This document shows positions 706-54,595 of a stretch of 59,330 nucleotides of DNA, piece by piece; positions within the stretch are counted from its first letter, which is position 1; every line of letters begins with the position of its first letter. Below the pieces are notes generated by a model that was not told where the DNA came from, searched no databases, and was given only the letters and a program-made list of their open reading frames with translations. The DNA is from an uncultured bacterium (GTDB lineage: Bacteria; Patescibacteriota; Gracilibacteria; Absconditabacterales; Absconditicoccaceae), in assembly GCA_903918675.1 (NCBI GenBank), contig CAIXFE010000093.1, positions 1 through 59,330 of the forward strand, written 5' to 3'. Position numbers and translations under genes: made by a program.

Positions 706-820
706 AATCGAGTACCCTCTTTACTTAAAGAGGGGGGACCCGATAGGGTGGGAGATTTTTTTAAACAAAATCCTCCGTCTGCTTCGCATCCACCTCCTTT
801 CGGTAAAGGAGGGATTTAAT
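706..820. repeat. hairpin-pair intergenic element (copy 1)
   Basis: CCCTCTTTACTTAAAGAGGG hairpin, then ACCCGATAGGGTGGGAGATTTTTTT, ATCCACCT and a CCTCCTTTCGGTAAAGGAGG hairpin. Same layout as 5335..5470. Confidence 0.6.
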
Positions 821-2508: not shown

Positions 2509-2593
2509 GGTATATTGGTGTATCGGGGATTGGTGTATTAGTGTATTGGAAAACGGCTGCCTGCCGAATAACCAATAACCAATTGCCAATTAC
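2509..2593. repeat. word-array palindromic element (ATTGG.. / core GGCTGCCTGCC / CCAATAA..)
   Basis: Left arm is repeated (T)ATTGGTGT words and the right arm is repeated CCAATAA/CCAATTG words (reverse-complement sense), around a GC core. Confidence 0.75.
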
Positions 2594-5334: not shown

Positions 5335-5470
5335 ATATTCTGTCTCCCTTTCATAAAGGGAGATACCCGAAGGGGAGAGGGATTTTTTCTCGAAAACACT
5401 CTATCATCTCTAGTATCTTAAATCCACCTGTCTTTCAGACTTCCCCCTTTGCAAAGGGGGACAACATGGG
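5335..5470. repeat. hairpin-pair intergenic element (copy 2)
   Basis: TCTCCCTTTCATAAAGGGAGA hairpin, then ACCCGAAGGGGAGAGGGATTTTTT, ATCCACCT and a CCCCCTTTGCAAAGGGGG hairpin. Confidence 0.6.
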
Positions 5471-19183: not shown

Positions 19184-21262
19184 ATGCAAATACGTAACTT
19201 TTGTATCATCGCTCATATCGATCATGGAAAATCAACATTAGCCGATAGGATGCTTGAGATGACTTGAACCGTGAGGAAAATCGATCATAATCAGATGCTG
19301 GATCGCATGGATATCGAACAAGAAAGAGGGATCACCATTAAGTTAACTCCAGCGAGAATGCACTGGAAAGGGTATGAACTCAATCTCATCGATACTCCCG
19401 GACATGTAGATTTCCAGTATGAAGTCTCTCGTTCTCTCGCCGCTGTAGAGGGCGTCATTTTGTTGATCGACTCAAGTCAATGAATCCAAGCGCAGACACT
19501 TTCCGTATTGTATATGGCAGTAGAGCAATGATTAGAAATCATCCCCGTCTTAAATAAAATCGATCTCCCTGCCGCACATCCAGAAAGAGTGGCCAAAGAA
19601 ATCGAGCATGTGATAGGGATCCCTAAGGAAGAAATTTTATTAGTCTCATGAAAGACAGGGGAGTGAGTGGAAGAAGTATTGGATGCGATTATCGAAAGGA
19701 TCAAAGATCCTGATACCTTCAAAAAAGAAAATCCTCAGAAATATCGACCTGCTGGAAGTCATTCTGAGAGAAGCGAAGAATATAATAAGGCCAATGATAT
19801 CCTTCACAAAAGTTCAGGATGACACGATTGAATCTCCAGAGCCCTTATTTTCGATTGTGTCTATGACGCATACAAAGGCGTAGTCGCGTACGTCAAAGTC
19901 GTAGAATGATCATTCAAAGCAGGGGAGTCAATGCATCTCATCCATTCCGATACCGATATCATCGCGACTGAAGTCTGACATTTTTCTCCAGAATATACCA
20001 AAGATAAAACATTATCTCATGGGCAGATCGGCTATATTCTTACCTGATTAAAATCCGTCCGTGATGCACAAATTGGCGATACAATCATATGATGAATTGA
20101 AAATTGAAAATTAGAAATTAAAAATTTGCGTGATTTTATTGTGCCTGGTTTCAAGAGGGTCAAGCCATACGTCTATGCAGGCATGTACCCCGTCGATACG
20201 AATGATTATGAAAAACTCAAAGATAGTTTAGAAAAATTATCATTGAACGATAGTGCTGTAGAATATTCACTAGAAGACAGTAAAGCACTGGGATTTTGAT
20301 TTCGCTGTGGATTTCTGTGAATGCTGCACATGGATATCATCAAAGAAAGATTACGGAGAGAATATGGCATCGAGACTATCTTTACCATCCCTACGGTAGT
20401 CTATCTCGTGAAATCCAAAAACCTCAGCATCCCCGAGATCAAATCCGGGAACAATATCCAGACACTCCTTTCTACCTGACTCTACAAAGATGTTTTGATC
20501 TACGAAAAATATACGACAGCTATTTCCAGTGATGACTTAGATGATATTGTTACCAATAATACTATCGATCCCTCTGAGATCTCATCAGAAATCTCTTCCG
20601 CTCTCACCCCCCGGATCGTCGTAAAATCAGGTTCGGATCTGCTCGATCAAGGCATCATGGATATCATCTTGGAGCCTATCGCAGAAGTGGAGATCGTCGG
20701 ACCCAAAGAATATGCAGGCAATATCATGGCCCTCAGCAATGAATACAGAGGCAGCCTCAAGTCGATGGATTACCTCGATGAGAATAGGGTAGTGTGGAAG
20801 TACGAATTACCCTTCGGCGAGATCATCATCGATTTTTACGACAGATTGAAGTCAGCGACAAAGGGCTATGCGACGATGAATTACGAATTCAAGAGATATC
20901 AAGAGGCCGACCTCGTCAAGATGGATATTTGGATCAATAATGAGAAAGTCGAGGCCTTGAGCTGGATCGTTCACAAGGATAAAGTCTATTATCTCGGTAG
21001 AGAAGTGACAGAAAAGCTTAAAACTCTGATCCCCAAACATCTGTTTACTATTCCTGTCCAGGCGGGTGTCGGTACCAAGATTATTGCTCGCGAAACTATT
21101 CCCGCTATGCGCAAAGATGTGATCGCGAAATGTTATGGAGGTGATGTAACGAGAAAAAGAAAATTATTGGCAAAGCAGAAAGAAGGAAAGAAGAAGATGA
21201 AAGCATTGGGTAATGTTAACGTGCCTTGAGACGTCTTTATAAAAATGGTAACCAGGGATTAG
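19184..21262 (+). CDS. lepA: elongation factor 4 (LepA)
   Basis: [20 protein letters not shown][TGA][58 protein letters not shown]. 692 aa because of low-complexity insertions. Confidence 0.95.
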
Positions 21263-21355
21263 GAATCGGTGAGCAGGAAGCAGGAATCTGTCCGAGCCCG
21301 GCCCCAATAAACCTGCCTGCCGGCAGGCAGGCCAATTCCCGATAAACCAATAAAC
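21258..21355. repeat. word-array element with perfect 20-nt palindrome core
   Basis: Core CCTGCCTGCCGGCAGGCAGG at 21312..21331, flanked by ..GGAATCGGTGAGCAGGAAGCAGGAAT.. and CCAATTCCCGATAAACCAATAAAC. Confidence 0.75.
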
Positions 21356-21375
21356 TGTCGTTCAACTTCCATAAA

Positions 21376-21681
21376 ATGATTTTACTTTTTAATAATGTAC
21401 CCCCCATGTTCCGAACGATCTTCTTGCGATACTTTATCGCCATCACTGCAATCACCTTTATCGTCCGATGAGTAGATAAATATAAAGCGAAGAAACAACT
21501 CCGAAGAATCCCAGAAAAAACGCTGTTGATTCTGACCGCACTGGGAGGGCGATTGGGAGCGATTTTATGAATCTCATTCTTCAGACATAAAACGATCAAA
21601 GGAAAATTTCTGATCTGGTTTTATGGGATTGTTGCGGCGTGGATAGTACTAGTTTTCGCATTGATGTATTTTATCAAATAA
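21376..21681 (+). CDS. DUF1294-like small membrane protein
   Basis: VDKYKAKKQLRRIPEKTLLILTALGGRLGAILG..FRHKTIKGKF pattern. 101 aa. Confidence 0.55.
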
Positions 21682-21711
21682 AGGTTTCTTTATATTCTTC
21701 AATATTATTTC

Positions 21712-22059
21712 ATGGCAGAAATAGGAATAATCGAAACTCTACATGCATCACATGGAAGCCAATCTCATGAGCATGACTTTAAAATTGAGATTGTTTTAGA
21801 AGGGAAAATAGATCCACAAACTGAATTTGTCGAAGGGATAGATCACTATAAAGTCATCGCTGAGTTGAAGAGGATACTCACAAAACTCGAAAATCAAGAT
21901 TTGAAAGAGATTTTAGCTCATGAAGGATATAGTTCTTCATGTAATGAATCTCTTGCAACTTATTTCATCAGATCGTTAAGAGACCAATTCCCGATCAAAT
22001 ATGTAAAGGTTTGGGAAACGGATAATAGATATGCTATTGTTTATGCCAATGAAGTATAA
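21712..22059 (+). CDS. queD: 6-carboxytetrahydropterin / 6-pyruvoyl-tetrahydropterin synthase family protein
   Basis: Intact 115-aa ORF. HASH..SHEHDFKIEIVLEG (His-rich metal site), C-terminal VWETDNRYAIV. Confidence 0.55.
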   Translation: MAEIGIIETLHASHGSQSHEHDFKIEIVLEGKIDPQTEFVEGIDHYKVIAELKRILTKLENQDLKEILAHEGYSSSCNESLATYFIRSLRDQFPIKYVKVWETDNRYAIVYANEV

Positions 22060-22065
22060 AAAAAT

Positions 22066-22180
22066 GTAATGAGTCTTCGACGTAATATATCACTTCGTGA
22101 TGTAATTTAGTCGCAATTATGTTGTAGCCACGATAAATTACAGCGTAGCGTAATTACGATATATTACGATACATCACAAT
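22066..22180. repeat. word-array palindromic element (ACGTAAT / ATTACG)
   Basis: Left arm CGACGTAATATATCACTTCGTGATGTAATT, right arm AAATTACAGCGTAGCGTAATTACGATATATTACGATACATCAC. Confidence 0.7.
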
Positions 22181-22198
22181 TTAACATAATAAGCCTCC

Positions 22199-23008
22199 AT
22201 GATCCACATCACAAAAATCCAAAACAATATTCTCTCTCGATACAAAACCCACGGTAGAACTCTTCCGCGAAGAAAAACCAGAGATCCCTATGCGATTCAC
22301 GTCTCTGAAATCATGCTGCAACAAACTCAGGTCGAGAGAGTAATTCCCTATTTTCATCAATGGATGAAAGATTTTCCCGATTATGCATCATTAGCCAAAG
22401 CATCCAAAGTTGATTTACTTAAACATTGGTCAGGATTGGGATTTAATTCGAGAGCTCTTAGATTACAACAGTGCGCGAAGAAAATGGTTGAGGGTTGAAG
22501 CCTTCGGCTATTGAGGGTTGAGAGTTGAAAAGCAACAAGAGACGAATTGCAGAAATTGCCGGGCATCGGTCCCTACACTTCTGCTGCGATTATGGCATTT
22601 GCTCGAAATAAAGAAGTGCCGGTGATTGACACTAATATCAGAAGAGTGCTCATCTTCCTTTTTAAGCTTCCAGAAACCATTATCTCCAAAGAGCTCGAAG
22701 TCTTCGCCGAGAAAATAATTCCCAAATGAAAATCTCGCGATCGACACAATGCACTCATGGATTATGGAGCACTAGAATTGACAGCGAAAAAGACGAAAAT
22801 TAAATCACTTTCTAAACAATCAAAATTTGAATGATCGGATCGTCAGGTTCGCGGATGGGTCTTAAAAAAAATGATTAAGGATGAAGAATTAAGAATTAAG
22901 GATGTTGGAGAAGAATTTCCACATAAAAATATAAAAAATATTTTAGAGGGGATGAAAAAAGAGTGATTGATTCATATCAAGAAATGAATAATAACGATTG
23001 CAGAATAG
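22199..23008 (+). CDS. HhH-GPD base-excision DNA glycosylase (MutY/Nth-like, no Fe-S cysteines)
   Basis: DPYAIHVSEIMLQQTQVERV, LPGIGPYTSAAIMAFA, VIDTNIRRVL, NALMDYG. 269 aa with no Cys in the C-terminal half. Confidence 0.75.
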
Positions 23009-23117
23009 ATATTATGTCATTCTGATCCCGACGGGTCGGGAGAAGAATATAAAGGAGCTTATTGTACTCTTCACTTTGTTCAGAGTGACAGATCATTTAA
23101 CCTCGTATCATTCCTAG

Positions 23118-23447
23118 ATGAAAATACTCCTCTTTACCGATCCATTACCCGCACAAGTGCTTTCAGGCGAAAAGACCGTAACCTGGAGAGTAGAGGATTA
23201 CAGATGAATCGATGTAGGCGATGAATTATCTCTATGATATAATGATGGCAGAGAATTTGCTCAAGCGATTGCAATCAGGGTCAAAGAAACAACTTTCTGA
23301 CAGCTTACAGATGAAGACTTCATCGGTCATGAAAAGTTCCCAAATCCAGAAGCAATGTATCAGAATTATTCAAATTATTATCACAAGCTAATTACTCCAC
23401 AAACCAATCTAAAAATTATCGAATTCAAACTAACAAAGATTACTTAA
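23118..23447 (+). CDS. ASCH-domain-like protein
   Basis: VLSGEKTVTWRVEDYR.IDVGDEL.. and LTDEDFIGHEKF pattern. 109 aa with three TGA codons. Confidence 0.5.
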
Positions 23448-23460
23448 AAGAATAAATACA

Positions 23461-23521
23461 AAAAAATAAAAAAACCCGTTCAAGCATCACTAGAGAAATA
23501 TCCCTAGGTGTAGCTAACGGG
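23461..23521 (-). terminator. intrinsic terminator on minus strand
   Basis: Minus strand reads CCCGTTAGCTACACCTAGGG...CTAGTGATGCTTGAACGGG (imperfect hairpin of about 15 bp) followed by TTTTTTTATTTTTT. Both flanking genes are on the plus strand. Confidence 0.5.
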
Positions 23522-23756
23522 GGTCCCGCTCATATAGAGACGAGATCTAGTGGTAGTCCAATCAGCGTTAGTAGATCAACTGACAGGTATGTACATAGAA
23601 TCTAACAATAACAAGCGTATGAAGTTACCATACAAAAGTATTCATAAGTGTTAGTGTTCAGAGGGTCTATGCTACAGTGACTGTACTATGACGTAGTCTT
23701 ACTGATCCAAACCAGTCTAGAACATACAGAAAAGGCAATAAATTTCAATAGATTCT
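23466..23756 (-). ncRNA. candidate ~290-nt non-coding RNA of unknown class
   Basis: A 380-nt gap with stops in all frames. Minus-strand TTGTTA-17 nt-TATGAT (23763..23791) upstream and a minus-strand terminator downstream. Confidence 0.3.
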
Positions 23757-23827
23757 TTACTTATCATAGAAATAATCTAAGACAATAACAAACTTGTTAA
23801 CCCTTTAACTAGCTAACTCGTTAACCG

Positions 23828-24496
23828 ATGTTATATTTCATTCCAACTCCCATCTGAAACAAAGACGATATCACGCTTCGCGCGATCAAGCTCATGCAGT
23901 CGCTTGAATTTTTCATCTGCGAAGACACGAGGACAACGATGAAGCTCATGAAAATGTATGAGATCCCGTACAAAGATAAGACATTTTTTTCTCTGACGAG
24001 CTTCACTTCTGACCATCAATTGGCTCGTTATGTGGATATACTCAAGGCCAGTGATATCGGTCTCGTCTCGGAAGCAGGCACGCCCGGACTCTCTGATCCC
24101 GGCAAATCCATGATCAAACTCTGTCATCAGTATCAGATTCCGTATACGATACTTCCCGGTGCAAACGCGCTGATCCCCGCAGTCGTCGCTGCAGGATTTG
24201 ATACATCCGAATTTACCTACTTAGGATTTCTTCCGACCAAGAAGGGAAGACAGACCAAAATTCAGGAAATTTTACAGTCAGAAATACCAGTCTTCGTCTA
24301 TGAATCTGTGCATAGGATAGAAAAGCTTCTCAAAGAATTACAGCTGGCAGGGTTCGTCGGTCAGATCGCCATCGCGAGAGAAGTGAGCAAAATGTTTGAG
24401 CAGCATTTCACGTGAACCGTAGAGGAGGCGGTGGATTTAATTACATCAAAAAAACTCCCCATCAAGGGAGAATTTGTCGTGGGGATAAAAAAATAA
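23828..24496 (+). CDS. rsmI: 16S rRNA (cytidine1402-2'-O)-methyltransferase RsmI
   Basis: LYFIPTPI[TGA]NKDDITLRAIKLM, FICEDTR, SEAGTPGLSDPG, LPGANA. Confidence 0.9.
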
Positions 24497-24497
24497 T

Positions 24498-25421
24498 TTA
24501 TTTTTTCTGTATTTTTTTCGGAGTTAAGGATTTCTTTTCGAGTGGAGTCTTTGTGGAAAGAATTTTCTTAGCCGGCTTTAGTTGCTCCAATATTTCTGCA
24601 CCTGTTTTTTTCTGAGCGATACAAGCATCCAATTGAGCAGAAAAATTCTCATACACTGTTTTTCGTTTCTTGATATTGGTGAGATGAGATCAGTTGAAAT
24701 CATTATCATAATTATTTGGTCATTTATTATACCCGTTGAGAGCATATTGCCGCCTAGTATCTTCATTAGTAATATCTGTAGAGACTTTACTCTTACAGTA
24801 CAAAAGATATTCAGCAGAAAAGTGTAGACTGACTTTAGGATCAAATCTTGAGTCAATCTTAGCTAGAGTTGCAGCATCAGATTTATTTTTCTTTTTGAGG
24901 AAAAGCAATCCATCCGCCATTGCTTTATTGTTCTTATTTTTATATGAAGCATACTTTGGTTGATCGTAAAACACTTTATAATCATGATAAGCGGCATACG
25001 TTGTTTTATCTTTTTCCCAGAGTTCATTGCAAAATCGCTTAAATGTTTCGGGCATGATTTGGAGCACTCCGACTCCACCATCTGCCGTATTGATCGTAGT
25101 AGCATTTCATTCTCCTTCCGTCAGCATCAAGGCAAAGAAATAATCCAATGGGATTCACTTGTCCTTTGCGACAGAAGATACTTCATCATAATATCTAAAT
25201 CCCCTCAGAAATTTCCCCAGTCACTCCTTATCACTGAGAGGAAATTCTTTCTTATCTACGCCATGGACTTTAAGATAAGAACAAAACGCATCCCTGCTGG
25301 TGATAGGATTATTTTCTACATTTTCTTGCAATGCAGATAATGATTCTTTGTCAGCAAGAATTTCATTGGCTTGCTCGTCTGCAAGCGTGACTTCTGTATC
25401 TAAGGCAGATTCAATTCACAT
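24498..25421 (-). CDS. lytic transglycosylase (SLT domain) protein
   Basis: ALMLTEGE[TGA]NATTINTADGGVGVLQIMPETF (catalytic Glu plus the (L/M)Q-x-MP motif). 307 aa, frame verified. Confidence 0.7.
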
Positions 25422-25442
25422 GAATGCGAGATGGAATAAAGA

Positions 25443-26156
25443 CTATTTCGTTTCATCTTCAATATCATCAGGATCGGGAATCTTTGCAACTTTTTTATTC
25501 TTCATTTCATCTTCTAAGAGAAGAAGAATCATAAGATTAGCAATGATCGTCTGATGATCACCATCAAGATGTTCCAGGTGAACCTTCTTTGTGATAGGCT
25601 TCCTTGCATCAATATATGGTGTATCTATCTTTTTTTTGATATTGAATGCTTCAAAAAGCATTCTAACATATTTCTCTCTCTTTTTGAGCGGAGCCTTTAA
25701 AACTTCAACAAGAGGGCGTTTATTTGCATACATTAAAAATTGCTGATCAATAAGACGATCTATTTTTCAAGTAACATCATCTAGATTTAGTTCTTCTATT
25801 GCCAATAGTTGTCACTTATCAAGTGAAAGATGCTCCCTGATAGCAGGGACCAAAGATCTCAACGCATTCCTTTTAAGGACAAGGAGATCTTCATGTACTC
25901 ATTCCTTACTCTTAATCTGCTGTGCAGGATCCTCGATAATGGAAGTGATCTGTTCTTGCCACTTACCATCTATCTTATCCCGCACGTGATTTTCTTTATT
26001 TCCCTCAATTTCTTTGATGAATTCATATAACTTAAAATCAGCTTCGGTTTTTTCATACGTTTTTGAAAATATGGTATCTTGAAGAGTTGAATTATACTTT
26101 AATTCTTTTTTTGTGACATCCACGTTTGTGGTATCCATATTTGTTTTAGCAATCAT
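25443..26156 (-). CDS. hypothetical protein (co-oriented, immediately upstream of the SLT gene)
   Basis: Two track ORFs joined across TGA at 25899..25901. 237 aa. Confidence 0.5.
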
Positions 26157-26166
26157 AAGAGAGAGG

Positions 26167-26223
26167 TTGAAAAGGTAAAATAATTTGCTATAATTAGTAT
26201 ACTTATTTTTTTTTATTTGTCAA
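26167..26223. promoter_or_regulatory. back-to-back divergent promoters
   Basis: Plus strand has TTGAAA-16-TATAAT (26167..26194) and minus strand has TTGACA-16-TATACT (26196..26223). Each lies 40 nt from its ATG (26234 and 26156). Confidence 0.5.
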
Positions 26224-26233
26224 AAAATAGGCA

Positions 26234-27262
26234 ATGAAAAAGCGAAGGTACAGAATAATCGGGATATTGGCGATAGTACTCATTGTCCTCTGAGCCATTT
26301 CGGGGCATATTCACCTGCAATTCTGAAATGGTACTCAATCCACAACCAACTTTCAACCTTCCACTTTCAACCTTCAACAGATTCAGAATATCACTGGGAA
26401 GTTACTTATTTTCCCATGAGCATTTGACCAATTTTTCACCATGATCGGACATACCCAAACCTGACTCCAGATCCAGACCTACGAATTCACCGAGAAAAAG
26501 ATCAAAGACCTGTTCAAAAATCTTTTGGACAAGGGAGTCTCTATTCAACTTATTTTAGAAAATCACCCCTACGAAGCCTATGTCGATGAATTTACACCGA
26601 TAAAAAATGCCTTTTCTGGATATGCAAATTTCGCTATCAAGTCCGACCAGCAGATGAAGACAGAATACGTACATAGCAAGATAGATCTCATGGATCAATC
26701 GTTTCTCATCAAGACTGCCAATCTGACGCACTCATCACTGTTTAGCAATCGTGAATATATGTTTTATAGTACCGATTCATGAGTGCTGCAAAGTCTAAAA
26801 ACCATCTTCGCCAAAGACCGAGCAGGGGAGCCGATCAAACCCAGTGACATTCATCCCAATCTCGTCATCTGCAATATCAATTGTAGAACCGTCATAGAGA
26901 GCATTCTCCAGCAAGCAAAATCATCCATCATCATCCAGACGCAATACATCAACGATCCTGCGATCCTGGACATTCTCTCCAGCCAGCAGAAGAAATTGAG
27001 CGAGATGAAGCTCCTTGTGGCCGATGTCACGACTAATGATATGCTCAAAAGTTATTTACCTGCAGTGACCAAGAAATTATCTAAGCCGTATCTCCATGCC
27101 AAGATGATCCTCATCGATCATAAGATTCTCCTCTTATGAAGCATGAACCTCTCAGCGAATTCTCTAGATAAAAATAGAGAAATCTGAATTTTGCTTCTCG
27201 ATCCAACTCTCATTTCCCAGTTCAGTGCACAATTCACGAAGGATTGGGGAAGTGGGAGGTAG
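26234..27262 (+). CDS. phospholipase D / cardiolipin-synthase-like protein (two HKD motifs)
   Basis: N-terminal TM segment. HSKIDLMD..IKTANLT and HAKMILIDHKILLLGSMNLSANSLDKNREIG. Confidence 0.8.
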
Positions 27263-27330
27263 AACGATGGATGGTTTAGAACGATAGGTTGTAGAACGAT
27301 GGAGTAGTGGAGAGATTCATAGAACGATAG
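27260..27330. repeat. left word array (TAGAACGATGG x4) flanking the four-helix-bundle gene
   Basis: Copies at 27260, 27277, 27292 and 27320. Reverse complement of the array at 27789..27845. Confidence 0.8.
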
Positions 27331-27356
27331 AGATTTATTAATTTACAACTTAAACG

Positions 27357-27719
27357 ATGAATGTAAGTTATCAAAAATTAGATGTATGGCAAAGAGCAAT
27401 GAATCTTATTGATACTATATATGAGATAACCAAATCATTTCCCAAAAATGAATTTGCTCTTGTAGATCAGATGAAAAGATCAGCAGCTTCCATTGCGGCA
27501 AACATTGCAGAGTGAGATCAGAGGAATACGAACAAAGAGAATGTAAATTTTCTTTATATCGCCAAATGATCAGCCGCGGAGACACAAACACATCTGCTTA
27601 TCGCCCAAAGACAAGGGTTTGTCAAAAAAGAGAAGGCAGCTATTCTAGATCAGGATATTACTATCATTCTCAAGATGCTATCATCATTGATATGATACAA
27701 GAAACAGCATCCAAAATAG
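27357..27719 (+). CDS. four-helix-bundle protein (23S rRNA intervening-sequence protein / Avd-like family)
   Basis: YQKLDVWQRAMNLIDTIYEITKSFPKNEFALVDQMKRSAASIAANIAEG...FLYIAKGSAAETQTHLLIA. Confidence 0.8.
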
Positions 27720-27788
27720 GAGGATGGACCATTAGACTTATAGAACGATTGTTCTATCGCTCGTCCTCCACCAAGGAGGGTTCCAACT

Positions 27789-27845
27789 CCCATCGTTCCA
27801 GAATCCACAGCCCATCGTTCAATCGTTCCAACCCCTATCGTTCCA
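27789..27845. repeat. right word array (CCATCGTTCCA x4)
   Basis: CCCATCGTTCCA, CCCATCGTTCAATCGTTCCA, CCTATCGTTCCA. Preceded by hairpins ATAGAACGATTGTTCTAT (27740..27757) and CCTCCACCAAGGAGG (27765..27779). Confidence 0.8.
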
Positions 27846-27931
27846 ATCCGAAGGTTTTTTCAATTGAAAAAAATAATCACATCAGTATCAATCTTTTAAT
27901 CTGTCAGTCTTTTAATCTGAGAATCCCAATT

Positions 27932-28366
27932 ATGTCCGATCTCACAATTCCGTTCATCAAACTTTCAGAGAAAGCGAAGATCCCTTCTCAAGCCACTCCG
28001 TCTGATGCTGGATATGATCTCTTTTCTACCGAGAACTATATCCTCAAACCAGGAGAAAGAAAATTATTTCAGACAAATATTTCCACTGCGATACCTCATG
28101 GCTACTATGGAAGGATTGCACCACGTTCATGATTGGCAAATAAACAGGGAATAGATATCCTAGCAGGAGTTATAGATTCATGATATAGAGGCGATATCGG
28201 TATCGTTGTCATCAATTTCGGTCAAGAAGATTTCCAAGTAAACGAATGAGATAGGATAGCACAATTCATTATAGAGAAATGTCACGAAGTGGAATGGAAA
28301 GAAGTGACTGAATTGATGGAGAGTGAAAGAAGTGAATGAGGACGAGGAAGTACAGGATTTAAATAA
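27932..28366 (+). CDS. dut: dUTP diphosphatase
   Basis: SDAGYDL, GRIAPRSGLA, GVIDSGYRGDIGIVVINFG, DRIAQ, C-terminal GG.GSTGF. Confidence 0.9.
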
Positions 28367-28469
28367 AATTGAGAGATGGAGGATTGAGGGATTGAGAAAT
28401 GAATCCTTTTCTGCTGTTAACTGTTATCCGTTATCCCCACCCCAGATACTTTATACTTTACATTCAATC

Positions 28470-29255
28470 ATGGACGAAAACGAAATCATCATCAAAAGCA
28501 GCAAACAGATTGCGAACATCAGGAAATCCGGGAAATACCTGACCCAACTCCTGAAGGAAATCAGAGATGCAGCAAAACCTGGTATCAAGCTCATAGAGCT
28601 AGAATTCATCGCAGAAGATTTTGTCAGAAAAAATAATGTAAAAGGAGCTTTTAAATGATACAATGGGTTTCCGGCTATTTTATGCTTATCTGTCAATGAA
28701 TGCTTAGTTCATGGGATCCCAGATCAGTATACTCTCAAAGAAGGCGATGTCCTCAAAATCGATGCAGGGATAAATTATTTATGATGAATCAGTGACGCAG
28801 CCATTACCGTGATCATAGGAGGAGAAAAGGCGAATCCATTAGGATATAAATTAGCCAAAGTTACTAAAGAAGGCTTGGACGGAGCCATACAGAAAGTCTG
28901 ACCGGGGAAAAAGATGTATGACTATTCACATGAGGTCTACACGCACGTTTTGAGTCAGTGATTCACGATCATTGAAAAACTGACCGGACATGGAGTAGGC
29001 GTAAGAGTCCATGAAAGACCCTATATTCACAATCATCCTCACCATCAAGATACCAAGACGACGACATTTACACCAGGGATGATCTTGGCATTTGAGCCCA
29101 TCACAGCGATCCAATCCAAAGATTTTGAGCTGAGAAGATGAAATGATCGAAATTTATATACCAAAAAATGAGATCTCTGAGCCCACCGAGAATACACAGT
29201 ATTAATTACGGAGAATTGATATGAGATTTTAGCTGGCCTAACTGAGTTTAATTAA
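28470..29255 (+). CDS. map: type I methionine aminopeptidase
   Basis: VHGIP, DVLKIDAG, GHGVGVRVHERPYI, FEPI, EYTVLITENG. Confidence 0.95.
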
Positions 29256-29256
29256 G

Positions 29257-29730
29257 ATGATCCTTGGAATTGATCCATGAGTAAGAAAACTCGGCTACGC
29301 GCTTATCAAAGCAGATTTAACGATAGTGGAATCCGGAATTTTACTTTTAGAAAAAAAATCTCCAACGAGACAAGATCAGTTTGAAAGGATGATGGAGATA
29401 GAAAATTTCTTTATCAAACTTATTAAAAAACATAAGATACAGACGGTGTGTATGGAAGAATTGTTTTTCACGAGATTCAATCAAAATAACGCAGAGTTTG
29501 TCTACGGCATCAGAGCGATATTGATTACTTTATGCCTTAGGAATAAGGTAAAGATCAAAGAATTGACTCCGATCCAACTCAAAAAATATATCACCGGAAA
29601 CAGTAAAGCCGATAAGAAAATAGTCCAAAATTGTATCATGAAGATATTTAATTTACAAGAATGTCCCGAATATAACGATGCCGCAGATGCCTTGGCATTG
29701 GCCTATATCGCTAATAAGATGAAAGTATAA
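29257..29730 (+). CDS. ruvC: crossover junction endodeoxyribonuclease RuvC
   Basis: MILGIDP[TGA]VRKLGYA, MEELFF, KADKKIVQ, NDAADALALAY. Start is 1 nt after the map stop. Confidence 0.85.
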
Positions 29731-29905
29731 TTTCTGATTTTCAATTTTTAATTTCCTTGTCCTGTAAAGGATAAACAATTTCTAAGTTCTAATTTCTAAT
29801 TTTCAAACCTCTTATGTCTAGGTTCTTTAAGCTTTGTGCTTGGCAGGCTATAAGCTTTAAGCCACTCTCCCACTTTCCCACACTCCCACCTTCCAACTCT
29901 CTTTC

Positions 29906-30328
29906 TTATACTTTTTTTTCAATTGCTTCTATTTCTTTCTCTTCTTTCTTAAGTGATTTCTCATTTTGTAAAGCAAGTGACTCAGCCTCTTTGGCTTCCT
30001 TATGATATGCATGGATGCTATGTTTTATCAATTTCTGAAATCTGGTCTGGAAGATAAGTCAGGTCAATCCTATGAAGAGAGGAGCCCCCATAAATCCATA
30101 AATAATTGCAATGATTTTTCCTCCATGAGTGACCGGGGCCATATCTCAATATCAGATCGTAGACATCGTAACTGAAGTAAAATAGAACGAATTGAAAAGA
30201 TCCCATCCTTCTACAATATGGAATAATACTGTTCCTATAATTACAATAATAAGAATAAACACGATGAAAAATAACACGGGATATTCACCGATAAATTCAT
30301 CAAAGAATCTTTTGAGATGACGATACAT
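29906..30328 (-). CDS. two-TM potassium channel (KcsA-like pore)
   Basis: Selectivity filter TSVTMSTI[TGA]Y[TGA]D (TIGYGD) between two hydrophobic helices. 140 aa. Confidence 0.8.
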
Positions 30329-30573
30329 GATGATATATATAAATATTAAATACGACACAATTATATACAGAATTTCAGAAAAAGCAAATTTTCGATACCA
30401 TTTTTAAGTTTTATATAGGGAAATCATCTAATAAGAGTATCGATAAGCCATTTTAACCCTACTCAAAACGGAACAAACCATTTGATTTATCGAATTTTTC
30501 CTCCTTCAAAAGAAAGTACACTAAAAGTTGATTTATCAAATTTTAATGCACCCAAAAAAAAGTAACGTAAAAT

Positions 30574-30602
30574 TTGACAAATAAGAGTGATCCGGATATA
30601 AT
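30574..30602 (+). promoter_or_regulatory. consensus sigma70 promoter
   Basis: TTGACA-17 nt-TATAAT, 70 nt upstream of the ATG at 30673. Preceded by two TTGATTTATC(G/A)AATTTT direct repeats. Confidence 0.6.
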
Positions 30603-30672
30603 TATCCTATAAGCAAAAAGCCCTAGAGAAATCTAGGACAAAATGATCCACTTTATACTTTAAGCTAGAAAC

Positions 30673-30888
30673 ATGTTCGATACAAAAAAGGCTTTGCTAC
30701 AATTCACCCATTTAAGTCATACCGACAAAGTAAGCAAGATGAAAGAAGTACTCTCCATACTCAAAACTAAGTCAGAATTTTTCGCTGACATAGAGAAGCA
30801 TTTTCGCGCACATCGCGATATCTCTGATGACATGATGGACTACTTATATCATGTTGTGATGAACCTCGTAGCTCTGCAAAACAAATAA
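30673..30888 (+). CDS. small hypothetical protein (71 aa)
   Basis: Intact ORF directly downstream of a consensus promoter. No recognisable motif. Confidence 0.4.
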   Translation: MFDTKKALLQFTHLSHTDKVSKMKEVLSILKTKSEFFADIEKHFRAHRDISDDMMDYLYHVVMNLVALQNK

Positions 30889-30915
30889 ATTCTTTATTCA
30901 TTTCCCCATACAGCC

Positions 30916-33081
30916 ATGACAGGCACATTCGAAAACATCAAGATAAACGACACACTCGAAACAGCAGAAAAAACTGCGATAGAGTGATTGGAAAAACTTG
31001 ACGATGCTACATTGATCAAAGCACTTCAGGATGAAAGTATCAATGTAGTCATCTCCAAAACAGGGGATGCTGAAAAGATGAAAGATATGAAGATGGCTGA
31101 CATTATCGCTGCATTCGACACCTTCGTTACCATTGATGCCACCACTGATCCAAAGAAATTGACAATGAGCTACAAGGCAAACACCACTGCTCCCGAATGG
31201 ATTAAAAACATCGTAGATGATAAGACACCCAAGGGCAACGATCTAGCTTTTCTCATAAATGCGATATATATCAACTTAACTGAATGATCCACTACGGCTG
31301 AAGAATTATTCACTGTCGAGACCAAAACCAGATTAGCAGGTCTCAAGAAAGAGATAGAAAAATCCAGTACAGCAAGTACGGGTGAGACAACTATCCCCAC
31401 ATTAGATCTCAGTAAACTTGATGACAACAAAATTTACTTCACGGATGAAACGATAACGCCATTATTGAAATCCACTATAGAATGATATACTTGGGGAAAT
31501 CAAAACGTAGAAAAACAAGTCTTCGAATATCTCAATGCCTGAGAGATTGCCAAGCTTCAAGAATATCTTTACAAGCAGAACGTAGCAAACGGAACCACAG
31601 ACCAAATGAATTCACGAAATGGGAAAACCTGGGATGGAATACTGGGAGAATGAACCTTGGATGGGATGAAAAATGCCGCTAAGATAGAAGATGGTAAAGA
31701 ATTATCAGAGGATGAATTAAAAGAAAAAAAGAATCCTACAGCGATAATCGCCTCCGTTGTCTCTCAAGGTAAAGACACAAACGATGGAGCAAAAACTCCA
31801 GAAAAAAAGGAGACCACAGAAATCACAAAATTAACTAAAGCAGAGATAGTTGAAGATCCTGCAGCGCATCATCTCATCGGGCCAGACTTCGATGGGCACT
31901 ATTATCCCATGCCAGGATATGATTGGGTAGATCCAGCAGCTGATTCAGAGAATTTTAGCGTCATTGAGACTCCTAAAATAACTGAAACAGAAATAGCAGA
32001 AGATCCAGCAAAATATAATCTCGTACGATCAGAGAGTAAGGGAGAATATACACCAGCAGATGGCTACGCATGGAGAAACAATGATGAAGGTGATTACACA
32101 GTCATTGAAAATGAATATGAACAAAAGACAAAAAGCATCAGCGAACTCAGTAAAATAGCGGTTGGCATCAAGACACTAACCGATACAGAAAAGAAGGCAC
32201 TCAGCCGATATGATCTCATGATCATCTATAGCATGAACAAGAAATTCGATATCTGAGCGAGTAAACCAGCTAACACATTATCCGCCAAAGTAGAAACTAC
32301 TGATCCTAGACGAGAAAAGGTTTATATAGAAGAACAGTTAGCTCCATATAAGTTAAAATTAAGTGACGACCAGCTAAAAAGTGTAGCCAAATTAATAAAA
32401 CAAGCAGATTATGATTCATCATATGGAGAATCATTAGGGGTATACTTCATAATTACAGAGGGGATAATTGACATTTACTTCGATAAAGACACTTATGATG
32501 ATAAGGTGGCGGCAATCAAAGAGCAGAAGAGGTTGACTAAGATAGCTACGATAAAAAGCAAATTACCTACAGCGAAAGATCTAATGGAAGACATGGGCGA
32601 GGCATTCGAATCAAAATTACTTCCGAAAGTAGTCTTTGACGATGCCAAACAATTTGAATCATTTATTATTGGGGTAGGGAAGCTCATAGATACCTTTGCC
32701 TACAGATTTGATACAGATACCCCATTCTATACTTCAGAGAAGTGAAATATCTATATGTCTGGCGGATATAGTTACCCAGATGTTTGATTTTCTTCAACTG
32801 TACAAAACCAAATAAATGCAGTCAAGACTAAATACCCAGATGCAACCATACCAACGATGAAAGAGATCAAAGCAAACATCAAAGCAGATAACCCCAATGC
32901 AAAGTTCTGAATAAATAAATGAGCAAAAGTTACGATTGAAAAAGACTTTCTGGAAGATTCTTCAATCCCCGAACTAAAGAATATAGAAGACTTCAGATGA
33001 AGCTCAGAAAGCAACAAAGAAGCAACGATACAGATCACGAAATACCTCAACAGCCTTGCTTGTTGGAAGGTAGCTGAATAA
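30916..33081 (+). CDS. large hypothetical protein (721 aa) with two tandem ~45-aa repeats
   Basis: Four same-frame pieces joined with TGA=Gly, all junction lines checked. Repeats are EIVEDPAAHHLIGPDFDGHYYPMPGYDWVD...FSVIE and EIAEDPAKYNLVRSESKGEYTPADGYAWRN...YTVIE. Confidence 0.55.
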
Positions 33082-33178
33082 ATAAAATATCTATAATTTC
33101 TCCTCTCTAGATTTTTCTTGTAATCATCTAACAATTGACTATAAGTTGTCAGTGACATTTTATCATGTCATTGTCTGG

Positions 33179-33712
33179 ATGAATTTAGAAAAACTTTTCT
33201 GAAGCAAAACCAAGGTAGATATCCTCAAATACCTCCTGTTTAGGAGGCAGGGCATCTCTATGAGAGCACTAGAAAGTGAGTTATCACGGACTTTCCCTGC
33301 GATCAAAAAACAAGTCGATTCTCTCCTAGAAGCCCAGGTCATCGATGTAAATAAAGAAGGACAGGGGCGATCTATCACTATCAAAACTGAATTTCACGAC
33401 AACATCAAAAATATTTTCTTCTATGGCCTCAGAAGTGAACTAATATCACTCTTTGATACCTATGAGGTGATGATAGATAAGTATTTTTTCGGCAAAAGAT
33501 TTGGTACCGATATTGAATCAGATCTTGTGATTATTTATAAGAACTGCGAGAAACCCCAGATAGATAGCATCAAAGAGAATATTAACAATATTTTCAGAGG
33601 CTATTTTATCGAGACGGTCTCCGTCGTTTTCATGTCATTAGAGGAGCGGCAAAAACGTTACAGACTGGCAGATAGATTTGTCTTGCAGATCATGAGACAC
33701 ATTAAGGAATAA
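33179..33712 (+). CDS. winged-helix (ArsR/MarR-like) domain protein with C-terminal unknown domain
   Basis: LFGSKTKVDILKYLLFRRQGISMRALESELSRTFPAIKKQVDSLLEAQVI. Confidence 0.45.
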
Positions 33713-33873
33713 TTTACGAATGCTCGAATATCCAAATTACCGAAACAATTTTAAAATTCTAAAATTTAAAAAATCTAAAATTGTTTTATAAATTTGGAAA
33801 GTATTCAAAAAATATTTGTACATTCGATGACTTGATGGACTTTACGGACTTTACGACTTGATAGACTAATTCT

Positions 33874-34584
33874 ATGAATCCAGAAATACTTCTAGAACAG
33901 ATCATCGGCTATTGCATCGGTGCAAACGAGATTGTCCCAGATATCCATAAAAAGATAGATCAGGACTATCATTTTGCAGTATTGCCCTATGGGCCACATT
34001 TTTATACTGGGATCTTGCAATCGTCAGGATATCTCTTATTGCCGGAGAAAAAGAATGTGCTTTTTGTCATCTCGCAAGACCAGCAAGAAGATGAAATTTT
34101 CCAGATCACGGGGACCTTTGGTCCTGTATTAGGAAAAGTGTGGACACTTTCTACAGACAAACAACGAGACACAAACTACCAACCCCAGATACATGATCTA
34201 GAAGCTATCGTCCAGCACCTTGCTTTCCTAGATGTAATTACTCAAGCTACATGCGTTAGCTGCATCGCAGTAGGGGAGAAGCTTTCTGTAGTAAATAAAA
34301 AAAAGCTGAATACTTATCTCAAGGCACAGCAGAAATCTACGAATATCGTGTTTTTGACGAATCTCTCCATCCATCACGGGAACAAGAAAGGAAGAAAAAA
34401 CGATGAGGCCCTGCTCCAAGACATCCTCCTAGGAGCAGACAAACAAAGCCCCAGCCTGCTTAAACTTTTTCAGTCCATAAGCACCCAAAGTAAGAGAGAG
34501 GCAGAGGTCATTGCCTATGCTAATTCTTGAGACTTCTGAGGAGATAAGCAGAAGAGCACAGGGTATGCCTGCATTCTAGCATAA
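33874..34584 (+). CDS. MEMO1 / AmmeMemoRadiSam-B-like protein (tentative)
   Basis: AVLPYGPHFYTG and a C-terminal NS[TGA]DF..STGYACILA pattern. Weak by-eye match. Confidence 0.35.
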
Positions 34585-34716
34585 TTTCAACACGGGCCCA
34601 ATGTCCCACAAAAGATCGTAAATCATAGTGAATTATATGCAGATTCTCTTGAAAACACGCTTGTTTTTAGTACAAGTACCTTGCCTAAATTTTTTTATTA
34701 TTGGAAAAATGAAAAA

Positions 34717-34899
34717 ATGATGAAATTTATCTATGACAGTTTAGAGACTGTCAAAAAATTGAAACATCCTACCAAGAAGGATTTTATCAATCTCACACTA
34801 GCTATATTCGCACTTGTGATCGTCGCTGGATTATATTTTATCGCAGCAGATACCGTATTTTCATGATTATACAAATGGTTTTTTAGTGTGATGAAATAG
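34717..34899 (+). CDS. secE: preprotein translocase subunit SecE
   Basis: ETVKKLKHPTKKDFINLTLAIFALVIVAGLYFIAAD. Lies immediately upstream of nusG. Confidence 0.75.
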
Positions 34900-35001
34900 A
34901 GGAAATGGTAATCGGTAATCGGGAATTCTACTTCCGAATAACCAATAACGAATAAACATATTTTACAATCTTCCAAATCTTTTAATATTTTAATCCACTC
35001 C

Positions 35002-35586
35002 ATGCAAACAAAAGATGCCAATACTTGAGAGATCAAAAGGCAGATAGAAGATAACAATTATAAATGGTATGTACTCAGTGTCGTTTCCTGACAAGAGGAA
35101 TTGGTAATAGAGAATCTGAGAGAGAGGATGAAAAAACAAAACTTGGAGGATGCTGTACAAGATTATATGTCTCCCATGGTCAATGAATCATCATTGAAGA
35201 AAGGAGAAAAGGTCATCAAACAAAGAAAACTATATCCATGATATGTATTTATCTGCTCCAAGATGAACGACAAAATCCGATATGTAGTCAGAAACACCCC
35301 AGGAGTCAGACTTATTGTAGGTGCAGAGACCCGTCCTATTCCACTGACGGATGACGAATATACCAAGATCATCGAACAGATAAAAAAGTCACAAGAGAGA
35401 TCTGAGCTAAAGATCCCATTTAAAGAAGGCGATCTTGTCCTCCTCAAGACAGGTGACTTTAAGGGAATGAAATGAGCAGTAAGAGCGATAGACTCAGATA
35501 AAAGTACCGTCATCGTAAATATAGAAATGCTAGGAAGATTGACTCCTGTAGTGATCGACCTAGACAAAATCGAGCTAATGAGCTAA
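35002..35586 (+). CDS. nusG: transcription termination/antitermination factor NusG
   Basis: KWYVLSVVSGQE, YPGYVF, YVVRNTPGV, KOW motif FKEGDLVLLKTGDFKGMKG. Confidence 0.9.
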
Positions 35587-35768
35587 TTCTCATATAGGTA
35601 ATAGGCAAATGTAGGAGATCGAATTAATGTATAATTGATAATTAATAATTGATAATGATGGTGTCTTTTAATATCAAAAAAAACTCCGACATTATACATT
35701 CTACATTATAAATTATTCATTCCATTCATCTCGCTTCTCTACACTTTTTAGCCGCTTAATAATGGTAT

Positions 35769-36491
35769 ATGTATACCGCCAAAGAAAAAAAAATAATAAA
35801 ATTATGTATGATCGTATTAGCACTTTCTATAGTGATGGTGTATATTCTGCTCTTCCAAGTAAAGGGAAAGACCTTACAAAGAAGTCAGACAGACACCAAT
35901 TCATGAGCAGATATTGCTATCAGTATCCAAAGCGGAGACCAAGAGCAAACCCTAACCCCAATCTATCAAGGGGTACAAGGGACTATCGAGTCAGACACAG
36001 GACTGACAACTGATAATACTCAGATCACGACGGGACTCACAGTTCTGCCTACGTCCACAGGACTATCAACATCATCGACACCAGCTACTACAATATCAAC
36101 TGCCATACCACAGACAGGAAGTATCCAAATACTCTCTGGGACAAATGTATTTTATGGGACGATAGATATCATAGAGAAATTGGGCATCAAATATCAATAT
36201 GCACTTATCGATACTTGAAATACCTACTTCATCTATTTAGGAAATCCCAGTTACGATTTTGCTACTATTGCGAGACAGCTCAAAGGCAATCTCTATGAGC
36301 TCAAGACCGAGCAAGAGATAGCGCAAAATAAACTCTTTGGAGACAAGATCGTATTTATCAATCTCCCCGAATACAAAGACAAGGAAGTGATTATGCTGAT
36401 CTACCTCAAGGATAAGGTTCGATTGGTACAGATGGAGTACAAAGCATATCATAAATCCAAAGCATATCTTAAATCTTTATTTATTCAATAA
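35769..36491 (+). CDS. membrane-anchored hypothetical protein
   Basis: N-terminal TM segment IIKLCMIVLALSIVMVYILLF and a Thr/Ser-rich linker. 240 aa, frame verified. Inserted between nusG and rplK. Confidence 0.5.
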
Positions 36492-36497
36492 ACGACA

Positions 36498-39663: not shown

Positions 39664-39775
39664 ATTGTTATTGGTAATTGGTAATTAGTAATTGGTTATT
39701 GGGCCGGAAGCCTTCTCCCAATACACCAGCCCCCAATATACCTGCCTACCGGCAGGCAGGCCAATACACAAATAT
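39664..39775. repeat. word-array palindromic element (GTAATTG / CCAATAC) with CCTGCC..GGCAGG core
   Basis: ATTGTTATTGGTAATTGGTAATTAGTAATTGGTTATTGG - GCCGGAAGCC - ..CCAATACACC..CCAATATA - CCTGCCTACCGGCAGGCAGG (39741..39760) - CCAATACAC. Confidence 0.8.
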
Positions 39776-47050: not shown

Positions 47051-47111
47051 AATCGAAACAAAAATAAACAAAGAGATGATGGTAACGAATAGTAATTTCG
47101 CCTTCACAGGC

Positions 47112-47190
47112 TGTAATTAATCGTAATTACTAATTACGTGACCCCGACGGGTCGGGGGAACAAATTACCAATTACGTCCGGCTTGCCGGG
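47112..47190. repeat. word-array element (TAATTAC / AATTACC) with CCCGACGGGTCGGG core
   Basis: Core at 47143..47156 plus a second hairpin CCGGCTTGCCGG. The same core occurs at 23027..23040. Confidence 0.75.
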
Positions 47191-47206
47191 ACAAATTACA
47201 TTTTTT

Positions 47207-51807: not shown

Positions 51808-51932
51808 ACAATGAAAATGATAATATAAATGTGGAATTATTTAAAAATATTTTGATATACATCACTCAATCTCTCAACCTTCCCACTTTCTTTATCCTGT
51901 AAGGACAACCTTCCCACTTTCCAACCTTCCAA

Positions 51933-54409: not shown

Positions 54410-54595
54410 TTAGATTTAAAAATTTGAAAATTAATTCGGAATAATTGGGGGTAATTCGAACATTTGTAAATTTGAAGTCCCTCAATCTCTCAACTTCTCA
54501 ATCCCTCAACTTCTCAACAGCCGAAGGCTCCTACTTCCGATTGAAAAAGCCCCAAAGAAGGGTATAGAGAGAGGGATTTATTTTTCTAGTTATCC

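Follow-up and report, generated by a model that had tools for sequence, protein, structure and literature searches.

A 20-nucleotide GC-rich hairpin, probably a mobile micro-element, recurs in an Absconditabacteria genome and across many phyla

GC-rich hairpin cores in the window

Past the end of lepA in an uncultured bacterium of the Absconditicoccaceae lies a perfect 20-nt palindrome (CCTGCCTGCCGGCAGGCAGG, positions 21312–21331), which belongs to a small set of GC-rich hairpin cores scattered through AT-rich spacers. We call "the window" the whole stretch of DNA that was analysed (59,330 nt, GenBank CAIXFE010000093.1); it is contig C93 of the source genome G000 (GCA_903918675.1), a draft of 123 contigs, 1.39 Mb and 38% GC. 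TGA must be read as sense for the long open reading frames (ORFs) of this genome to close, in the manner of SR1/Absconditabacteria, and the public runs that hold the window sequence are lake and freshwater metagenomes. The lepA gene stops at 21262, the palindrome follows 49 nt further on, and a co-directional DUF1294-like gene comes next. No part of the window matched an Rfam family at gathering thresholds and thus no core belongs to a curated RNA family; in E-value mode, the repeat loci returned only tRNAs and one SAM (S-adenosylmethionine) riboswitch. The sequence of the main core, described below, was not found in the searchable literature.

The palindrome is a variant (A8 to G) of a 20-mer that we name F1, whose consensus, CCTGCCTACCGGCAGGCAGG, forms a hairpin of 6–7 bp with an A-C mismatch (−15 to −17 kcal/mol for the predicted RNA fold). 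The perfect-palindrome form is the minority (10 copies versus 63 exact F1 copies over five genomes) and is a one-step intermediate between both orientations of the asymmetric F1. At ≤3 mismatches, the window contains two matches to the palindrome, at 21312 and 39741, and 100 shuffles contained none. A first-pass annotation of the window had proposed near copies at 39741–39760 and 2556–2566. The former stands, differing by a single base, and it was bridged by an independent metagenome contig with zero differences; the latter (GCTGCCTGCCG) matches only one arm and half the loop of F1 and is therefore a half-site remnant rather than a near copy. Genome-wide, F1 is present in 27 copies at ≤3 mismatches, including 16 exact copies and three perfect palindromes, where composition predicts at most 0.25 copies for each core. 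At least 13 of the 27, as judged by eye with no formal scoring, sit in period-7 word arrays. Hosts include CCAATAN, GTAATTA and CTAAGNT arrays as well as DNA outside arrays, in agreement with the earlier observation that identical cores are embedded in different word arrays. Four of the 27 copies lie inside called ORFs. One ORF of G000 (C10:5674-6507) has a UvrC-like start (GIY-YIG N-terminus) and continues in frame across a word array and an F1 variant (C10:6303-6322) to the contig end.

F1 is abundant in a few relatives and identical across phyla

How widely is F1 distributed? We compared 41 genomes, i.e., G000 and 40 relatives (among them G012, G015, G022, G023 and G039), of which 24 are of the same genus. 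At ≤1 mismatch, and with palindromic copies counted on both strands, the nearest relatives of G000 (80–86% lepA identity) gave 54 (G022), 30 (G023) and 16 (G012) match rows, which puts the closest relatives at roughly 16–50 copies. Zero or one row was found in 19 of the 24 same-genus genomes and two rows in two more; G039, of another family, gave 16. A control with the reversed pattern matched nothing in all 41 genomes.

In a scan of one genome per prokaryotic species, at least 120 genome contigs, spanning more than 10 phyla, carried the exact 20-mer. Its hosts include Nitrospirota, Chloroflexota, Bacteroidota (isolates among them), Ignavibacteria, Planctomycetota, Omnitrophota, Acidobacteriota, many groups of the candidate phyla radiation (CPR) and others; the chance expectation in 596 Gb of uniform composition is ~1. 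The exact 20-mer is also present in 12 viral contigs and the perfect palindrome in at least 120 metagenome contigs, and cultivated carriers include Olivibacter oleidegradans CCM 7765. In foreign hosts, F1 is flanked by host-specific word arrays, CGTC/TGTC repetitive extragenic palindromes (REPs), CCCTCTCC..GGAGAGGG hairpins, a terminator loop or partial tRNA copies. Only 3% of the cross-phylum flanks passed a 0.6 autocorrelation threshold for periodicity (versus 0.6% of controls); thus, word arrays are a frequent host of F1 in G000 and a minority host elsewhere. We rejected an adapter or linker artefact because F1 matches no adapter known to us and because it comes from isolate genomes and many unrelated studies, with lineage-specific variants and host-specific repeats around it. 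An identical 20-mer in SR1, Bacteroidota isolates, Nitrospirota, Planctomycetota and viral contigs points to a shared copying machinery or to highly efficient horizontal movement.

F1 is found as a discrete unit in varied hosts

On contig C59 of G000, F1 interrupts a partial copy of tRNA-Leu(TAA) (GGTAGA-F1-CACAAGG), and the intact tRNA, 330 nt downstream, reads GGTAGACACAAGG. At G000:C111:8047-8280, two tandem 79-nt units each combine a CCGCAATATTGCGG hairpin with the 3′-terminal 23 nt of tRNA-Met, whose T-loop contains F1; the units abut an intact tRNA-Met that lacks F1. An arrangement of the same type is found in G022 at tRNA-Val, where a 104-nt array abuts tRNA-Val at two contig ends. Four paralogous GTAATTA-word elements carry F1, F1 reversed or another GC core (CCGGCTTGCCGGG; GCAGAGC) at one and the same position: this is the second-core position of the window element at 47108–47206, and two of its three paralogues elsewhere in the genome have F1 there, in opposite orientations. 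F1 also lies within the TGTC composite, the CGTC REPs and the 706-type composite of relatives (see Table 1).

We collected insertion-site statistics from 163 non-redundant F1 instances. Target duplications of ≥2 nt, which the first-pass annotation had suggested looking for together with an orientation bias, were absent throughout. A pyrimidine (C or T) stands at +1 in 94% of the instances and the −1 base is C/A in flank logos, and no conserved target motif was detected beyond these two bases. The two flanks pair with each other (≥6 bp) in 18 of the 163 instances versus 2.6 expected, the control being shuffled flank partners and not random intergenic sites. Relative to the nearest upstream gene in G000, nine copies have the same and eight the opposite orientation, i.e., no bias. 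Read from sequence comparison, these patterns show F1 arriving as a discrete 20-nt unit, in either orientation and without target duplication of ≥2 nt. By the same comparison, it lands in DNA that was already repetitive or hairpin-prone: heptamer arrays, CGTC/TGTC REP-like elements (in their loops and arms), the loop of a terminator, and partial, non-functional tRNA copies, where it sits in the D- or T-loop.

In four orthologous spacers (lepA, htrA, C119 and C41), no F1 copy was held in common at the same site. The lepA spacer of G012, G022 and G023 contains unrelated hairpins or a GIY-YIG insertion and no F1. In the spacer past the gene at 39784–40920, G023 has a word-array palindrome without F1, and G012 and G022 have neither. 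In the C41 spacer F1 is found in G000 only, and in the C119 spacer G023 carries a 19-nt F1 variant in the other orientation and with different flanks. As far as these alignments reach, they show that F1 turnover between sister species is quick. The metagenome contigs that cover 20500–40400 are short, end or branch where a core lies, and bridge only the 39741 copy.

The DNA past lepA in two of these relatives has contents of its own. On contig C3 of G022, the last ~28 nt of lepA are duplicated around a 37-nt insert with a TCCCGCAAGGCGTGA hairpin, and an additional membrane-protein-like gene lies between this duplication and the DUF1294 gene. On contig C29 of G023, a GIY-YIG gene is inserted immediately past lepA; a CGTC-tagged REP (GTCATTGCGAGGAACGAAGCAATCCAG) brackets it as direct repeats of 27 nt, and this is where the contig stops.

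F1 as a probable mobile micro-element

We consider it probable that F1 is a gene-less, 20-nt GC-rich hairpin micro-element that is dispersed as a discrete unit and that 21312–21331 is one copy of it. Because F1 is a discrete unit in varied hosts and because the same 20 letters are found in more than 10 phyla, we take it to be DNA that is mobile or templated rather than a terminator evolved in place. The first-pass annotation had argued for a common origin of this kind, and for the main core the argument holds: perfect copies lie in unrelated flanks, presence or absence is a clean 20 nt when compared with paralogous tRNA sequence, F1 is missing from the orthologous spacers of near relatives, its bursts in copy number are limited to one sub-clade, and it occurs in many phyla. 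A trans-acting activity would copy F1, working on single-stranded or extruded hairpins, and the lead candidate for this enzyme would be the small GIY-YIG nuclease that adjoins F1 at tRNA cassettes; any service of F1 as an RNA 3′ hairpin would be secondary.

Several points weigh against mobility. The case for it is comparative throughout. The preference for hairpin loops concerns only ~11% of the instances, as measured against shuffled flank partners, and other cores, in several pseudo-tRNAs, take the place of an entire arm rather than being added to it. No filled or empty F1 allele was detected in four lake/freshwater DNA runs mapped on 20500–40400. Some copies share ~50 nt of CCAATA-word flank and part of the spread could therefore be recombination between arrays. 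Finally, gene context comes from our own ORF and codon-usage calls and is approximate.

Small GIY-YIG genes in tRNA cassettes

Of the five GIY-YIG matches in G000, one (C10) reads as a UvrC N-terminus and the other four are free-standing small genes. Three of the four small genes lie between an intact tRNA and a partial tRNA copy that is plugged by a GC core. The cores of these cassettes are F1, TCCCGC..GCGGGA or TCCGCC..GGCGGA, and the D- or anticodon arm of the tRNA copy carries the core or is replaced by it. We built a hidden Markov model (HMM) from the four small proteins and ran it on 212 loci (1.33 Mb) chosen only for holding the main core. It matched 14 ORFs, 12 of them ≤300 nt from the core. 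The ORFs near it fall in ten loci from several phyla, where a partial tRNA copy with the core adjoins the GIY-YIG gene. Nine of the ten have the order partial tRNA with the core in the D-arm, GIY-YIG gene, intact tRNA; in the tenth the core is in the T-loop of a 3′ fragment. The intact tRNA was confirmed by ARAGORN in eight of the ten. Among 20 small GIY-YIG loci sampled without bias from the relatives, seven have a tRNA within ~500 nt, and in five of these seven the partial tRNA copies are plugged by other cores, including TCCCGAC..GTCGGGA.

F1 and its sister cores could thus be non-autonomous partners of tRNA-associated GIY-YIG nuclease cassettes, as REPs are to RAYTs (REP-associated Y1 transposases). 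The nuclease would recognise or cut hairpin loops (tRNA-like D-, T- and anticodon loops or REP loops), and the 20-nt hairpin would then be copied into the break, with the gene or alone. If true, nucleases paired with hairpins would form a class of mobile DNA of their own, over more than 10 phyla. However, ~95% of F1 copies are far from such a gene, the rare copies of F1-poor genomes are solo, and GIY-YIG counts do not track F1 counts. We therefore regard the partnership as tentative and, on balance, unlikely. The association itself is real but may be indirect, since the cassettes give rise to tRNA copies that are dispensable and tRNA-like loops are a preferred site of F1.

Alternative origins of the cores

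Could the cores be classical REPs mobilised by a RAYT? A TnpA-REP-like Y1 partner had been suggested in the first-pass annotation, and the sole Y1_Tnp gene of G000 (C4:16991-17254) does score best against the NCBIfam 'REP-associated tyrosine transposase' (60 bits, below the 80-bit cut-off). G000 and four F1-rich relatives each have one to nine Y1_Tnp matches, and HUH substrates are typically imperfect hairpins (PMC3733652). The suggestion finds no support at the locus, however: the G000 gene is flanked by its own hairpin, CCTGGTCATTTATGGCCAGG, whose three copies are all found there, and not by F1. Likewise, in G022 and G015 the hairpins that flank Y1 genes are of the CGTC type and not F1, none of the G039 Y1 matches listed is within 6 kb of F1, and Y1_Tnp is also present in half of the F1-poor genomes; over the 41 genomes, counts of Y1_Tnp, 23S_rRNA_IVP and GIY-YIG do not separate F1-rich from F1-poor. 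F1 shares size and copy number with REPs, which are multi-copy, mostly extragenic palindromes of 20–40 bp (PMC3733652), being 20 nt long and present in 27 copies. It starts with CCTG and ends with CAGG and so has no terminal GTAG/CGTC tag (GTAG is found only inside the loop of the reverse strand), no conserved 4–5-nt target adjoins the 163 instances, and the only Y1_Tnp gene of G000 lacks the flanking F1 copies that a GTAG-REP would call for. These features make mobilisation by a RAYT very improbable. Nor does F1 look like a MITE (a miniature transposable element with terminal inverted repeats), given the lack of duplications of ≥2 nt and of a parent insertion sequence (IS) with matching ends. 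Because the 3′ half of F1, GGCAGGCAGG, occurs in G000 only within F1-type units, the genome has no longer element with F1 ends, and a parent IS with F1 halves as its ends was rejected on this ground. The Y1 locus itself (G000:C4:16660-17500) has four tandem 20-nt repeats (ATATCAATGGCCCCGATGTC) upstream of the RAYT-like gene, and the three CCTGGTCATTTATGGCCAGG copies bracket it.

Selection for transcription terminators or RNA 3′-end stabilisers could produce one favoured hairpin repeatedly, without copying. Perfect GC-rich hairpins are indeed ~6–10-fold denser in spacers (0.8–1.7 per kb) than in coding DNA (0.16 per kb) and ~2-fold denser in convergent than in divergent spacers (1.69 versus 0.81 per kb); the majority of F1 copies lie 15–130 nt past a stop codon, the predicted hairpin is stable, and the lepA spacers of G000, G012 and G022 all have a GC hairpin, of unrelated sequence. 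Yet no U-tract follows F1 in either orientation, terminator-like sites in 20001–40000 are not in excess (15 versus 11.9 in shuffles, standard deviation 2.7), the fraction of spacers with GC hairpins is similar for divergent (19/110) and convergent (20/98) ones, and in tandem spacers the side of the upstream stop is not clearly favoured (46 versus 37). With no T-run and with orientations of nine versus eight, F1 does not behave as an intrinsic terminator. The C119 spacer has a canonical terminator, a hairpin with a T-tract, that three species have conserved; F1 is located past it. F1 is also found in tRNA fragments, REP loops and an ORF, and hairpin selection cannot account for 20 identical letters in more than 10 phyla. 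The cores are moreover not confined to the window or to U-tract sites past convergent genes, a pattern that the first-pass annotation would have read as plain terminators: the genome has 27 copies, divergent spacers hold them, and U-tracts are missing. We thus consider this explanation highly unlikely, and a similarly low probability attaches to F1 as a site that some conserved protein binds or recognises (in the nucleoid, segregation, restriction-modification or DNA uptake), kept or amplified for its function. Such a site would fit the extreme uniformity of the copies, with the A-C mismatch form outnumbering the perfect palindrome as given above, the match of the F1 centre to RCCGGY and, for a dimer, the absence of orientation bias. 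Against it, F1 positions differ between sister species, each copy comes about as the insertion of a whole 20-nt unit rather than through point mutation, and most same-genus genomes have zero to two copies, so that no conserved cellular function in the lineage can depend on F1. Uptake sequences in particular are lineage-specific, and the F1 word spans phyla, is non-coding in nearly all copies and inserts as a whole unit. If similar word arrays and repeat scaffolds exchanged F1 by homologous recombination or gene conversion, with no dedicated insertion reaction, this would explain why copies on C10, C49 and C118 and both window copies share ~50 nt including CCAATA words (80–94% identity) and why one scaffold position carries different cores; word arrays and composite elements also offer many short homologies. 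However, where a clean 20-nt insertion sits in a tRNA fragment, a REP loop or the loop of a terminator, no flank is shared, the flanks of the 163 instances are unrelated save for the +1 and −1 bases, and identity across phyla would still require a vehicle. As the main route of spread, recombination is in our judgement distinctly unlikely, and we retain the reading of F1 as a mobile micro-element.

A secondary role of F1 at RNA 3′ ends, or its simple tolerance there, is plausible because convergent spacers are denser in hairpins and because one spacer has different hairpins across sister species; this leaves the shared sequence unexplained. Canonical hairpin-plus-T-tract terminators are present in the window (50990–51040 and 51265–51300) and at G000:C119:16150-16185, and thus the organism appears to use ordinary intrinsic terminators besides the U-less cores.

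Other core families and composite elements

The other cores are separate families of the same kind as F1, with differing ranges (Table 1). All five core groups listed in the first-pass annotation are found at the positions given there or within 1 nt, the 2556–2566 half-site excepted, and all are far above chance. A genome-wide count, also proposed there, gave 27 copies of F1, 13 exact copies of CCCGACGGGTCGGG (in the window at 23027 and 47143), 12 of TGTYCTGTAAAGRA, 11 of GTCCTTACAGGA, five of AGCCTTCGGCT and 16 of the composite element, counted by the 14-mer AAAGAGGGGGGACC. CCTTGTYCTGTAAAGR is found at 11239 and 29755. Two assignments needed correction: the hairpin placed at 54520–54530 exists and lies 1 nt away, at 54519–54529 (AGCCGAAGGCT), and 51894–51904 is related to the TGTCCTGTAAAGGA family in which it had been put, as a reverse-complement relative with a loop 1 nt shorter. 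Four of the five copies of the AGCCTTCGGCT family have GTTGAGRG-type words on both sides, and the 54519 copy has them on one side only. The composite at 706–820 is a copy of an element of roughly 115–135 nt; two CCCTYTTT..AAAGRGGG-type hairpins are found in it and two in 5335–5470, which is probably a diverged copy of the same design.

Two families were missing from the earlier list, TGTCCTCCACCAAGGAGG (F2) and GACGCATTGCATGCGTC (13 copies). F2 is present in 12 copies in G000 and in none of the 40 relatives, and it was not found in viral contigs; with F2 confined to one species among 41 genomes, unlike F1, core families differ widely in range. CCCGAC..GTCGGG recurs in REP-like composites, word arrays, pseudo-tRNAs and the tip of a riboswitch helix. 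True CGTC/TGTC-tagged REP-like elements coexist with F1 in G000 and host cores. One of them, at 23015–23090, is predicted to adopt a Y-shaped fold (−28.3 kcal/mol, z = −2.1); nine genomic copies have its layout, and its G022 homologue lacks the CCCGACGGGTCGGG core and carries F1 at another spot in the element.

Table 1. Positions of F1 copies, sister cores and host elements (window coordinates unless a G000 contig is named).
Feature	Position	Strand	Context
F1 perfect-palindrome variant	21312..21331		within palindromic heptamer word array; predicted RNA hairpin about −15 kcal/mol; no counterpart in G012, G022 and G023 spacers
F1 canonical CCTGCCTACCGGCAGGCAGG	39741..39760	+	23 nt past stop of minus-strand gene 39784-40920; right arm of TTGGTAA/CCAATAN array palindrome
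F1 half-site remnant (CTGCCTGCCG)	2556..2566		centre of GGTGTATTGG/CCAATAACC word-array palindrome
tRNA-linked GIY-YIG cassettes	G000:C59:2860-3290, C30:34900-35320, C81:5950-6330		genes for ~80-90 aa that comprise the catalytic domain alone
TGTC-tagged REP-like composite (TGTCATTCTGA ... TCAGAGTGACA)	23015..23090	+	CCCGACGGGTCGGG core (23027-23040) at tip of first hairpin
GTAATTA word-array element	47108..47206	+	holds CCCCGACGGGTCGGGG (47142-47157) and second core CCGGCTTGCCGGG
TCCT-GTAA-AGGA-type mini-hairpin core, variant TTCT..AGAA	11239..11254	+	between TTTAAATTC words
TGTCCTGTAAAGGA core, 12 copies genome-wide	29755..29770	+	convergent spacer, TTCTAAT-type words either side
GTCCTTACAGGA core, 11 copies genome-wide	51894..51904	−	between GGTGGGAAGG words; reverse-orientation sister of TGTCCTGTAAAGGA family
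AGCC-TTCG-GGCT tetraloop core	22499..22509	+	AGCCTTCGGCT; GTTGAGRG words both sides; inside weakly scoring ORF 22199-23008
AGCC-TTCG-GGCT core, second copy	54519..54529	−	orientation opposite to 22499
Composite multi-hairpin element (AAAGAGGGGGGACC family, 16 copies)	706..820	+	internal hairpin replaced by, or carrying, F1 in other copies and in G039
Probable diverged multi-hairpin composite, without AAAGAGGGGGGACC	5335..5470	+	similar design to 706..820

Further cores were noted elsewhere in the genome. The P3 helix of a SAM-I riboswitch at G000:C35:7208-7313 (52 bits, above gathering) has the tip CCCCGAC-CC-GTCGGGG, the core also present at 23027 and 47143. An GTAGAGACGCATTGCATGCGTCT family occupies 13 G000 loci (e.g., C54:22175, C4:15891 and C33:25618) as part of a longer unit with a CCACACC ... 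GGTGTGG outer stem, often adjoining a GTCCTTACAGGA core and GTTGAGG words. In the window, a species-specific core, CCTCCACCAAGGAGG (27765–27779), lies directly 3′ of a four-helix-bundle (23S_rRNA_IVP) gene at 27372–27683; this family has 14 matches in G000.

Relation to known elements

No mobile DNA is understood less well than very small mobile repeats, and the presence of F1 in cultivated strains makes a bench study feasible. GC cores also break assemblies, create spurious ORFs, can pass for terminators or attenuators, and sit inside functional RNAs and genes.

How does F1 compare with described elements? Like Rho-independent terminators, it is a stable GC-rich stem-loop that usually lies 3′ of genes; unlike them, it lacks a U-tract, also occupies divergent spacers and the inside of other elements, and is identical across unrelated loci and phyla. 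The cassettes resemble the tRNA-cluster GIY-YIG homing endonucleases (SegB of T-even phages; PMC2988022, PMC13096335) in that a small GIY-YIG gene lies by tRNA genes and the unit is tandemly amplified. They differ in that the predicted 85-aa product is a catalytic domain alone, encoded in cellular genomes between a hairpin-plugged partial tRNA and an intact one, and in that most F1 copies are nowhere near a GIY-YIG gene.

The nearest described things to F1 are the small dispersed repeats (SDRs) in heptamer arrays, the CGTC/GTAG REPs and the mitochondrial GC clusters. We know of no enzyme for any of the three. In mitochondrial DNA, the GC clusters of yeast and the PstI palindromes of Neurospora are GC-rich palindromic cores in AT-rich spacers and are thought to be mobile; both kinds are organellar, lineage-specific and 18–50 bp long, sometimes lie in frame in genes, and some make short target duplications. 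F1 and its sisters likewise form a small set of GC-rich palindromic cores scattered in AT-rich spacers. With GTAG/CGTC REPs and the REPIN/RAYT system (PMC3733652, PMC3116915), F1 shares the short GC-rich extragenic palindrome, the imperfect stem, tens of copies, strain variation and occasional intragenic copies. It is, in contrast, untagged, shorter than most REPs, not beside a RAYT-like gene and not species-specific.

SDRs are gene-less hairpin units of 21–27 nt that insert precisely, often in tandem heptamer arrays or small transposons, and can nest; they were judged mobile from sister-genome comparison. To our knowledge, they have been described in heterocystous cyanobacteria only and have not been linked to tRNA fragments or GIY-YIG cassettes. 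SDR1–8 of Nostoc/Anabaena were reportedly set out by Elhai et al. in 2008, in Genome Res 18:1484. The Elhai paper is cited in PMC3116915 and PMC4390886, and SDR5 sits between fixed bases of HIP1 (PMC4390886). Judged from their description, SDRs are matched by F1 in its clean 20-nt presence or absence (C59, C111 and G022), in its nesting in heptamer arrays, TGTC/CGTC REPs and composites, and in positions that differ in close genomes (none of four orthologous spacers in common). F1 differs in being 20 nt long, in residing in SR1 bacteria and in recurring without a changed letter across more than 10 phyla and in contigs of viruses. F1 is thus a micro-element of a known general kind whose distribution is unusually wide and letter-perfect.

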